Origin: Moniliella sp. 'wahieum'
Taxonomy: Eukaryota
Assembly: GCA_003971905.1 (NCBI GenBank)
Contig: RSEE01000058.1
Span: forward strand, 1 to 64,000
Length of the DNA: 64,000 nt
Direction: 5' to 3'
Under the pieces are notes generated by a model, which saw only the letters and a program-made list of their open reading frames with translations, had not been told where the DNA came from and did no database searches. The position numbers and the translations under genes are program-made. The stretch's first letter is position 1; the number at the start of each line of letters is the position of its first letter. Positions 13,668-22,335 of the stretch are shown piece by piece.

Positions 13668-16600
13668 ATGCCGTCCGCCCGTGCGCTCCGCACTGCCCTC
13701 AACGTCCGCCCGGCCGGTGCGGCTGCTGCGTGTCTGCGCAGCTCAACCGCCGCCGCCGCCGCTGCCCGCCACCCTGGGGAGCCCAGGCTGCGCCTCACCC
13801 CACCTTGCCCTCCACCTCCACCAGCGCCTGACCCTGCGTCGGCGCGATGTTGCCTCTTCCACCGCACTCTATCCTCCTCCGCTGCCCCACCGCAAGCAGT
13901 GCCTGTCGATGTCCCCACGTCCAATGTACGTGCTTCGCGTGGCACGTCCCAAAGCAGTGGCCACAGTATGTCTTCTGTCCCGCTCCCTGTCCCGCCCCTT
14001 GTCGCAGGCACCTGTCCTAACATATGCCCTACCTTTCAGATCTACTGAGCGAGGTGCTAGAGGCTCGTCCGAAGCACCAAAGCGCGCTTCGGCCCATTTA
14101 CCTTGACTCGCAATCCACACGGCTCTCGACCCGCGCGTGCTGGACACGATGCTGCCCCTTTTGACCAACCGGTACGGCAACCCCCACTCGCGCACCCATG
14201 CGTATGGATGGGAGCTGAGGAGGCGGTGGAAACGGCGCGCAAGCACGTTGGTGCCCTCATCGGTGCGGACGCCAAGGAAATCATCTTTACGTCGGGCGCT
14301 ACGAGTCGAACAATTTGGCGCTCAAGGGCGCAGCTCACTTTTATGGTGCGAAAAAGAACCACATATCACGGTGCAAACCGAACATAAGTGTGTCTTGGAC
14401 TCGTGCCGCACGTTGCAGGAGGAAGGGTACGAGGTACCTATCTTCCTGTCCAGAGCAATGGTTTGATCCGTCTTGCCGACCTGGAAGCGGCGCTGCGGCC
14501 CACTACGGCCATTGTCTCGATCATGGCGGTCAACAATGAGATTGGTGTGATCCAGCCGCTCAAGGAGATTGGTCAGCTGCTCAAGACCAAGGGAGCGCAG
14601 CTGGCAAAGGAGGCGGGGCTAAGTGGCAAGCCGCTGTTCCATACGGACGCTGCCCAAGCGGTGGGGAAGATTGCGTTGGACGTGAATGAGATTGGGGCGG
14701 ATCTGGTGTCATGTCGTCGCACAAGATTTATGGTCCCAAGGGCATTGGCGCGATCTACATTCGTCGTCGACCCAGGGTGCGCTTGACGCCGATCATTTCG
14801 GGTGGAGGGCAGGAACGTGGATTGCGATCGGGCACGCTGGCGCCGGCAGGTGGCCGGGATGGGCGAGGCAGCGCGCCTGGCCAAGGCCGAGAGGGGAGTA
14901 CGACTATGCGCATGTGTGGCCTTGTCCAAACGGCTGCGGGAGCGGATCGAGAGCAAGGTGAGCCACGTGTTGTTCAATGGCGATGAGGGCGGTATCCGGG
15001 TGCGTCAACTTGACATTCCAATATGTCGAGGGCGAGTCGATGCTCATGGCTCAAGCGGGTCTGTCTCTCGTCCGGCTCGGCATGTACATCCGCCTCGTTG
15101 GAGCCGTCGTATGTGCTGCGTGCGCTGGGTCTGAACGATGAGAATGCGCACTCGTTGGCCTAGGGAGCCGGACGGGCAGAAGGATGAGGAGAAGGTGATG
15201 GATTGGAGCCAGAGTGGGTCTGGGTACAGAGGCATCTATATAGGAGGCTGGACTAGGCACAGGGACAGTGAGTCACACAGAGAGAGTGCAGGGCACAGGG
15301 ACAGTGACACGCAGGGACGTCAGCGTGGAAGCCGATGGAACGAGGCGAACCTGGTCTACGACTGGGAGCCAGAGGATCACAGTCAAACCCCGCTGGCCAG
15401 GGAACCGGAGACATCGGTTGTGGGATGAGCTCTGCCAGTGGATGTAGAGAGGGGAGGACTGAGTGGCAACCGGGAACGAATGGCCTGGAGTTGTGCATGG
15501 CCACACGACTGGCCTACACCCCCGCTGTCCAGGATGACACCTGAACGAGCCGAGCGCTTGTGGTTGGTGTATTGTGCGACCGCCAGATGCTTGTAGAAGT
15601 CTTAGAAGTAAAAGTAGTAGGGGTGCGCCCCGAAGCGATTTGGTGGGCAAAAGTAAAAAGCACCAGTTATAGGTGTAGTGAAAGAAAATTGGAAACTTGG
15701 AGTAAATGCGGTCCAAGGTCGTTTGGCATCAAAATTGGATGCGTTTGGTAGTTGTTTGGTTCCGCATGCCTGGTGCCAGTGGGGTCCATTGGGCATGGGA
15801 AATGAACGGGCGCTATGCGTCAACCGTCTTGATCTGTTGGGTTCTCTTGTTGTTGAAAAAGGAGTGGAAGAAGTTGGGTGACACCCCCCCCATCCTTTCC
15901 CCAGGTGCCCCGGATGAATGGCAATCCGGGGCGTGTAGCCGTGTGGGGCACTTGATGAGCAGCCACCCCCGCTTTCTGCGATTCGCCTGCGCCGTTTGTC
16001 GTTGGAGGAATTTCGTCTCGTTGACGATACCCGACACGTTTTGTTCCGTGTGTTGTCCCTAAAAATCATTGCCCCATCTGTGGGGGACGAGTGTGCCGAT
16101 TGTGGCGGTAGTATGCCGATTGTGGCGGTAGTATGCCGATTGTGGCGGTAGTATGCCGATTGTGGCGGTAAGGTGCCGATTGTGGCGGTGGTGTTGTTGC
16201 GGGAGGAGGCGGGTGTGTCTTGTGGGCTTGGCGGCTTAGCTTGGGCTTGTAGGCTTGGGGGTGGGCTTGCTTGAAGAGCGCTCCCCTTCCGGGGGGATCA
16301 GATTGTAGCTCGTTGGCCTAGGGAGCCGGACGGGCAGAAGGATGAGGAGAAGGTGATGGATTGGAGCCAGAGTTGGGTCTGGGTACAGAGGCATCTATAT
16401 AGGAGGGGACTAGGCACAGGGACAGTGAGTCACACAGGAGAGAGTGCAGGGCACAGGGACAGTGACACGCAGGGACGTCAGGTGGAAGCCGATGGAACCG
16501 AGGCGAACCTGGTCTACCGACTGGGAGCCAGAGGATCACAGTCAACACTCGTCGCTCCGGTTTGGCATGGGCCGGTTCACCACGACGGAGGAGGTGGACT

Positions 16601-16709
16601 TGTGGCGGACCAGATCATTACGGTGGTGGAGAAGTTGCGCGACATGTCGCCGTTGTGGGAGATGGTGCAGGAAGGGATTGACCTGGATTCCATCCAGTGG
16701 TCCGAGTGA
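13668..16709 (+). CDS. NFS1: Mitochondrial cysteine desulfurase Nfs1; intron 13926-14039; interrupted by an insertion at 15155-16545
   Basis: Arg/Ala/Ser-rich presequence, then [70 protein letters not shown] and [24 protein letters not shown]. After the insertion it resumes with [12 protein letters not shown]...[24 protein letters not shown]. Confidence 0.92.
15155..15386. repeat. Left terminal direct repeat (LTR)
   Basis: TTGGCCTAGGGAGCCGGACGGG...GGATCACAGTCAA, matching 16313-16545. Confidence 0.9.
16094..16189. repeat. 20-bp tandem repeat (TGCCGATTGTGGCGGTAGTA, ~5 copies) inside the element
   Basis: Directly visible. Confidence 0.9.
16313..16545. repeat. Right terminal direct repeat (LTR)
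   Basis: Matches 15155-15386 with only a few small differences. Confidence 0.9.
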
Positions 16710-17650: not shown

Positions 17651-18649
17651 ATGTCTCCATCCCCCACCGACTCTGCAACACCGCGCTCCCAGCGGTCCAC
17701 CACCCCATTAATACCCCCGCCTGAGCCCGCGCGTACTCCCGGTGCCCCATCATTATTCTCAAAGCATGTAGCCCAAACGAAGGAAAAGCTATCGCCGAAG
17801 AAGGCCTCAGGTCTATTCAAGCGCTTTACTCGTAATATTACGTCCAGGATGCCTGGTCAGAAGAAAAAGAAGGCACCTGTCGTTGTTGTTGCTTCCGATG
17901 TTGGTGAAGCGGACGAGCATTTCCATCTTTCTGAAGCGCCACCCCTGCAAAAAAAAAGTTAGAGCCACGGCCAGCTGGGTACCCTCCCAAACCAGGTGCC
18001 CGGAGTATAAGCCGCCGGTTGTACAGTATCCGCCCCCGCCCGGAGAACCATTAGATGGGCCCGTTCGTCCTGCCAAGACAGAAAGCAAGGCAGATGATCT
18101 CCCAGCAGCAGCGAGAGAGGTCCCTATCGACACCCCAAGCCCCGCATCCGCACGCCCAAAATTGTCTTGGCCGTCTTGAAACGCATCAAGAGGGGTAAAA
18201 AGGATCCCAAGAAAACTGGTAAGGCCGCCTCAACCCCAAAGGGAACCGAGGCTAAGGCCGAAACCAAGGCCGAGACCAAAGCACAGACCAAGGAAAAGAC
18301 CAAGGAAAAGGCAAAGACATCAGATACCAAGGCATCAAAGACCAAGGCATCAAAGACCAAGTCATCAAAGACCAAGTCAAAGGCCAAGACAGCAAAGACC
18401 AGGCCAAAGACCAAAGGAAACGAATCCGAGACATCAAAGACCAAAGGAGATGAACCCAAGACAGAAGAACCCGAGACAGAAGAAAAAGCCAAAGAATCGG
18501 GAGCCGAGGATTTTGCAGATGCGATCACGAGTCTTCCCGACGAGGACAGTCCTACTGAAGGGGAAGGCATATCTGAAGAAAAGGGCAAGTCTGAGCAGGA
18601 GGGAATGTCGGAAGAGAGAAAGCCTGAGCAGGAGGAACCCAAAGCCTAG
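17651..18649 (+). CDS. Hypothetical charged low-complexity protein (Lys/Thr-rich then Glu-rich), frameshifted
   Basis: Three consecutive plus-strand ORFs (17651-17962, 17883-18179, 18167-18649) with protein-like bias: KTKAS repeats and an acidic tail. No family recognised. Confidence 0.5.
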
Positions 18650-19723: not shown

Positions 19724-22084
<2,361 letters not shown>

Positions 22085-22335
22085 CGTGCTGGGGGGGGCG
22101 CGTGTGGAGGAGAGACGGGATGGAGGCGGATGGGAAGACGGGTCGTCAGCAGCAGCACGGGCCACGCGCCCTTATTATACGCTCCACCCGCCTCCCGACG
22201 GCACCTGAAAATTTGGTCTCGGGCCGCGCCGCCTGTCCTACGTCACTCCGTCGGCACAGCGCCTGTGTCGCAGCGGATTGTCCGCCTCAGCGCCCCAGCG
22301 CCCCAGCGCCCCAGCCTCAGCCGCCACCTCGACAC

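Follow-up and report, generated by a model that had tools for sequence, protein, structure and literature searches.

TRIMs, some of which are tandemly arrayed, are recognized in the account of Gao et al. (2016, PMC4717578) by a size below 1,500 bp, by the existence of two or more complete copies whose target duplications differ, and by the absence of retrotransposon proteins; more than 77% of those treated there are below 1,000 bp. In Copia elements of rust fungi and in the fungal Helenus TRIMs, according to Kojima (2024, PMC10886601), the anticodon loop of mature tRNA-Tyr serves for priming; these elements have Copia partners and duplicate 5 bp of the target, and the same account includes Ty5 and Drosophila copia among the elements with half-tRNA priming. 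In Candida albicans, Tca1 has 388-bp LTRs and a copy number of 5-10 and is regarded as inactive, and the families treated in the same source include primer sites matching internal tRNA regions (PMC4139406).

The locus examined here lies in a 64,000-nucleotide stretch of DNA, called the window throughout, and is compared below with these systems. The window very probably holds a ~1.4-kb non-autonomous Ty1/copia-type TRIM that was inserted very recently, in antisense orientation, in one of the five NFS1 copies of an allopolyploid member of the Ustilaginomycotina. The features of the locus are collected in Table 1.

Table 1. Positions of NFS1 and of the inserted element in the window.
Feature	Position	Strand	Remarks
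NFS1 5' part up to the insertion	13668..15153	+	Mitochondrial cysteine desulfurase; putative start ATG 13668; many assembly indels
Putative native NFS1 intron, 74 nt	13966..14039	+	GTATGT...CTAAC...CAG; splicing would restore the frame
Left target-site copy CACTCG	15149..15154	+	True duplication probably 5 bp within CACTCG; empty site on C60 and in runs X1 and X2
3' LTR	15154..15387	-	Element antisense to NFS1; ~240 bp in other copies
Polypurine-tract-like G-rich site	15388..15398	-	Just before 3' LTR; 20/21 bases as in the C100 copia family, LTR start included
Internal region, non-coding, ~0.92 kb	15388..16311	-	Pfam in 0/9 sister-copy frames; weak low-complexity tblastx matches only
20-bp tandem repeat, ~5 units, in leader	16090..16189	.	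Unit number differs among copies
Primer-binding site	16298..16311	-	Complementary to nt 27-40 of spliced tRNA-Tyr(GTA), 13/14
5' LTR	16312..16547	-	TATATA word at 16396-16401
Right target-site copy and displaced NFS1 3' end	16546..16709	+	52 codons SLRFG...WSE; TGA 16707-16709

The part of NFS1 upstream of the insertion contains the motifs SSHK and SSGSACTS, which we take to be the PLP-lysine and the catalytic cysteine, respectively. Further copies were sought at the DNA level across the genome (69.5 Mb, 223 contigs). All five candidates (5/5) were NFS1 loci, namely C58 (the window), C60, C113, C31 and C34. The element is absent from the last four, all of which read straight across the site. 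The identity of the gene was tested on the open C113 homeolog, which matches PF00266 1-371 from end to end and human mitochondrial NFS1 with an E value of 6.6e-172, displaced end included; it thus has both the domain and the full-length mitochondrial NFS1 match of an NFS1/IscS cysteine desulfurase. Stop-free frames were found in C113 (572 codons, PF00266 1-371) and C34 (508 codons, PF00266 1-369), and an open frame is demonstrated for only 2/4 uninterrupted copies, because C60 and C31 are split by assembly indels (8 and 12 gap columns, respectively, against C113, with frameshifts).

The substitution distances of the NFS1 exon are 1.2% for C58/C60, 1.3% for C113/C31 and 16.0-18.7% between groups. 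C58 and C60 are collinear for ~20 kb around the site, and by sequence comparison C60 is the empty-site allele of the window copy. The preliminary description had argued that the organism needed a second allele or a paralogue, which it has in the four uninterrupted copies that the genome search located elsewhere in the assembly. It had also held that an intact homeolog would make this an ordinary heterozygous insertion, and since uninterrupted copies are present the insertion is read as one here. NFS1, a gene of sulfur supply, is essential in yeast. There is no paradox in its interruption at this locus: the insertion is an ordinary mutation that is buffered by four other copies.

The assembly is rich in indels. 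Alignment of the window NFS1 exon with the open C113 copy gave 17 gap columns in 1108, and 9 of the 10 indel places listed between the window and contigs of two other runs are extra bases. Single junction bases are untrustworthy. Apparent frameshifts are frequent in the housekeeping genes of the window (13668-15153 and 19900-22300), and these are indels of the assembly. Genes that seem broken elsewhere in this genome need to be read with the same caution.

In the sequence as assembled, CACTCG occurs at 15149-15154 and again at 16546-16551, a spacing of 1391 bp. The direct repeats at 15155-15386 and 16313-16545 align over 229 bases with 0 substitutions and 7 gap columns, a similarity above chance (E 1.7e-108). 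A split of NFS1 by 1391 bp between near-identical repeats with CACTCG, as originally described, was thus recovered at the same positions. The NFS1 frame enters the insert as ENAHSLA*, and the plus-strand frames of the internal region contain several stops in all three phases. The displaced codons, those that follow ENAHS, number 52 on the empty C60 allele. The early stop and the loss of the C terminus reported previously stand as far as the displaced codons and the reading ENAHSLA* are concerned, whereas the exact place of the first stop is uncertain, as is the 6-bp duplication, because the window junctions are 3 bases short of the pattern of the family, which is TG...CA ends with a 5-bp duplication.

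The 6-bp target put forward earlier is probably not a true duplication, since an exact 5-bp duplication with TG...CA ends (LTR ~240 bp) was found in 21/27 other insertions, and all 21 duplications are different. Sequencing error, with three dropped bases, probably accounts for the sixth base pair. Three 5-bp words within the window target fit equally well. Among the six insertions with inexact duplications, one has a single-base difference, and two or more are composite loci in which the wrong ends were paired. An unusual integrase was rejected as the source of a 6-bp duplication because sister copies show 5 bp. The ends of the window copy look non-canonical, and a tyrosine-recombinase or Penelope-type element was also considered; it was rejected on finding TG...CA ends and 5-bp duplications.

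Published structures place the C terminus of NFS1 beside the scaffold protein ISCU2 (PMC11618653). Because the C terminus adjoins ISCU2, an NFS1 protein that ends before it would probably be inactive. A literature search for C-terminal truncation of Nfs1/IscS returned nothing beyond this position next to ISCU2.

The element belongs to a family with many copies. The 13-nt end of its LTR has 216 exact matches in the genome, positions being available for the first 100 of the 216, compared with 0 for the reversed control. The internal part has at least 46 matches (40 scored of 116 candidates). In local BLAST, full-length sisters and the window copy are separated by 0-7 substitutions along ~930 internal bases; these counts were preferred to the 13-22 substitutions of whole-element global alignments, which are inflated by the variable tandem repeat. 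Together with the absence of substitutions between the two LTRs, this near-identity bears out the recent activity proposed at the outset. Single units measure ~1,380-1,420 bp, with one deleted copy of 1,346 bp, below the TRIM limit. Sister copies have the TG...CA ends, primer site and purine tract of LTR retrotransposons, and the window copy is 3 bases short of them.

Protein coding was examined in the sister copy L013, where 0/9 stop-to-stop frames match Pfam (9 of 13 frames, the other 4 being mostly flanks), so that no retrotransposon protein was seen. A tblastx comparison with 10 copia loci gave weak low-complexity matches only (E 0.001-0.002).

Some family copies are truncated or inverted, and others form tandem arrays with common LTRs. 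Long tandem arrays, inverted or palindromic rearrangements and short LTR-leader-LTR derivatives were observed at L004/L005/L039-L041/L047 (C145:52.6-58.4 kb), C34:327438-328934, L009 and L010. At L015/L108 (C1:618.5-621.2 kb) a tandem element copy ends ~20 bases before a tRNA-Thr(CGT) gene. At L093:2903-8554 (C16) a copia element is nested in a ~90% diverged relative of the LTR of the window element, and older members of the family therefore exist.

The 14-nt primer site lies directly after the 5' LTR, occurs once in the 64-kb window and has its mismatch opposite tRNA-Tyr position 37. The half-tRNA primer of Ty5 and Drosophila copia is in the same register, nt 27-40. An initial tRNA pattern that required G at position 37 gave no match, and a looser pattern found the tRNA-Tyr genes. 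Among 30 loci taken from the looser search there are 14 tRNA-Tyr genes, and 14/14 have an intron at the junction spanned by the primer site. ARAGORN called Tyr for 3/5 tested genes, with the intron at 37/38 in two. Since the match crosses the splice junction, the primer would be the 5' half of mature tRNA-Tyr. A primer from the 5' end of tRNA-Ala was rejected; the Ala genes seen, which are the main Rfam tRNA matches, do not match the site.

Position 37 was also compared among copies. C stands opposite it in 37/38 junctions (L001-L030, overlapping loci counted twice), and A37 is present in 14/14 Tyr genes. The matching base was seen at one L001-L030 junction and also in L038 and L039/L047. These rare copies could carry primer sequence that was copied back into the element.

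At least 150 copia RT genes are present in the genome (150 scored of 204 candidates). Ten copia loci were taken at element length, and one of these, on C100, has the identical 14-nt primer site. The domains that it encodes, protease-like, integrase and RT, follow the copia order, and the interior of its LTR is not similar to that of the window element. Related primer sites were seen in three further loci among the ten, which belong to two other families. A 3'-truncated tRNA primer and a 5-bp duplication, as expected of an element mobilised by Ty1/copia, are common to the window family and a coding copia element. The C100-type family is, on these signals, the likely mobiliser, although another family may be the true one because only 10 of the 150 copia RT loci were taken at element length. 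No coding element with a window-type LTR was found among 25 copia loci compared, two of which overlap one place where a copia element is nested in a diverged relative of this LTR; such an element may exist among the LTR places beyond the first 100 of 216. The genome-wide search for copies and for an autonomous partner that the preliminary description had recommended has thus yielded 216 LTR-end matches and, in C100, a candidate coding partner with the same primer site.

More widely among the copia elements, at least three multi-copy families with unrelated LTRs and related tRNA-Tyr anticodon-loop primer sites are represented by L093, L094, L095 and L101 (C16, C10, C100 and C12). The primer sites of copia families L097, L098 and L102 differ from the tRNA-Tyr type.

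The composition of the host genome was judged from several genes. A neighbouring gene, presumably Hsp110-like by its translation, is present six times, with two close copies and four others at 78-79%, and eIF6 was found at 4 loci. In general, single-copy genes are present 4-6 times, in groups 16-21% apart. The groups C58/C60, C113/C31 and C34 suggest a three-parent allopolyploid of Ustilaginomycotina. Gene neighbours differ between the C58/C60 pair and C113/C31/C34, which speaks against a simple picture, and the latter three have upstream genes in common. In the window, the gene downstream of NFS1 contains degenerate 12-15-base tandem repeats at 18251-18464, rich in lysine, threonine and aspartate on the plus strand. 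The best named NFS1 relatives are from smuts (77-81%), followed by Tilletia (76-77%) and Malassezia (71-74%). With smut fungi (77-81%) as best named relatives, the host can be assigned to Ustilaginomycotina but to no group within it. Among the papers listed in a literature search, none matched a comparable hybrid within Ustilaginomycotina.

Family copies with 2-3 substitutions over ~930 bases were found on C60, C108 and C69. C108 and C69 carry 79%-identical homeologs of the neighbouring gene. Near-identical copies on contigs whose homeologs are ~20% apart suggest that the element family spread after the parental genomes met.

Three other explanations were weighed. In one of them, the insertion is an assembly artefact, in which a repeat copy was misplaced in one NFS1 haplotype. 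The assembly is error-rich, the junctions are 3 bases off the family pattern and other runs show empty sites only: X1 and X2 contigs of the close allele type bridge the empty site with a skip of 1397, and among the listed pieces of three low-depth runs, made from other samples, no contig spans a filled junction. A misplaced repeat is nevertheless very unlikely. The insert is a complete element, since it has its two LTRs, a primer site and a purine tract, and it lies between duplicated target bases, which misjoins would not usually produce. Both flanks continue collinear with C60, and the runs with an empty site come from different samples. Equally little favours an assembly composed of separate organisms, in which C60 would be the sole backup of the interrupted copy. 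This would fit the 16-19% divergence between groups, as well as the lack of NFS1 neighbours common to the C58/C60 pair and the other copies, but family copies with 2-3 substitutions lie both on C60 and on the homeolog contigs C108 and C69, which points to one nucleus. We regard such a mixture as highly improbable, and even if it were true the empty site on C60 would keep the insertion heterozygous.

The remaining explanation is that the insert is spliced from the NFS1 pre-mRNA, using GT at 15154 and AG at 16540-16541, so that the allele still works. Such splicing would take out 1388 of the 1397 added bases, so that a scar of 9 bases remained and the frame was kept, and Drosophila vermilion/412 provides a precedent for the cryptic splicing of LTR elements in antisense orientation. 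An in-frame outcome has a chance of 1/3, however, and the donor GTTGGC is off-consensus. No CTRAY branch point occurs on the NFS1 strand anywhere in the insert, and purines and earlier AGs mark its 3' end; the putative native intron of Table 1 looks different in these respects. The consensus donor, branch point and acceptor expected of a spliceosomal intron or introner-like element were not found together at the two ends of the insert on the NFS1 strand; consensus donors are internal only (15268, 16425 and weaker ones). Splicing is also unneeded, as other NFS1 copies are present. Removal from the mRNA, which the preliminary description had offered as one way out, is hardly credible given the missing CTRAY and the missing consensus donor at the start of the insert. 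Were it true, the scar left by any TG...CA copy of the family with a 5-bp duplication would have a length divisible by three, and exonic antisense insertions could be partly self-masking, which would aid their spread in a gene-dense genome.

For the recent insertion of a copia-mobilised TRIM, which we prefer, the following course is proposed. Element RNA would start in the LTR at 16312-16547. Judging from the shared cis signals, a coding copia family that has the same primer site and the same 3' purine tract would package it, the 5' half of a spliced tRNA-Tyr cleaved at nt 40 would serve as its primer, and the copia integrase would carry out integration. The C58 allele would then yield at most a protein minus its last 52 residues, and may be a null that is covered by the other NFS1 copies.

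The insertion itself matters little, being a textbook example of polyploid redundancy that tolerates a transposon in an essential gene. The extension of half-tRNA-Tyr priming and of TRIM-type elements to a smut-related fungus is of modest value, the priming mode being known from earlier work on Copia of rusts and on Helenus (PMC10886601). A literature search by titles and the starts of abstracts found no smut-related case of fungal copia tRNA-Tyr priming, and the supplements of Kojima 2024 may list further families. A near-identical family on contigs ~20% apart in coding sequence, which would date its spread to after the genome merger, provides a fungal case for transposon activity in hybrids, again of modest value.

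Among the described systems, the fungal type of Helenus (TRIMp3) shares with the window family an anticodon-loop primer site and a 5-bp duplication. The LTR was examined for a tRNA-derived sequence with box A and box B, and none was found in an Rfam scan of L013 to E 5. A box-A-like word and two GGTTC words are present near the LTR start, spaced too close for a tRNA. Because its LTR lacks a tRNA-like sequence, the window element is not a Helenus, and membership of TRIMp3 was rejected. Relative to Helenus and the rust Copia families as described by Kojima (PMC10886601), it differs in the lack of tRNA-derived LTR sequence, in its longer internal part and in belonging to another fungal subphylum.

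The window element resembles Ty5 and Drosophila copia in its 3'-truncated tRNA primer, which ends in the anticodon stem, but it uses tRNA-Tyr rather than initiator tRNA-Met and encodes no protein. With Tca1, as presented in PMC4139406, it has in common that it is a non-coding fungal LTR element with a 5-bp target duplication, whereas the window family has about a hundred near-identical copies. The likeness to the TRIMs of Gao et al. (PMC4717578) extends to a length below 1,500 bp, different 5-bp duplications, the lack of protein and arrays of at least three LTRs with internal parts. Unlike the plant TRIMs in that account, the window element is, at ~1.4 kb, at the upper size limit, and its host is a smut-related fungus.
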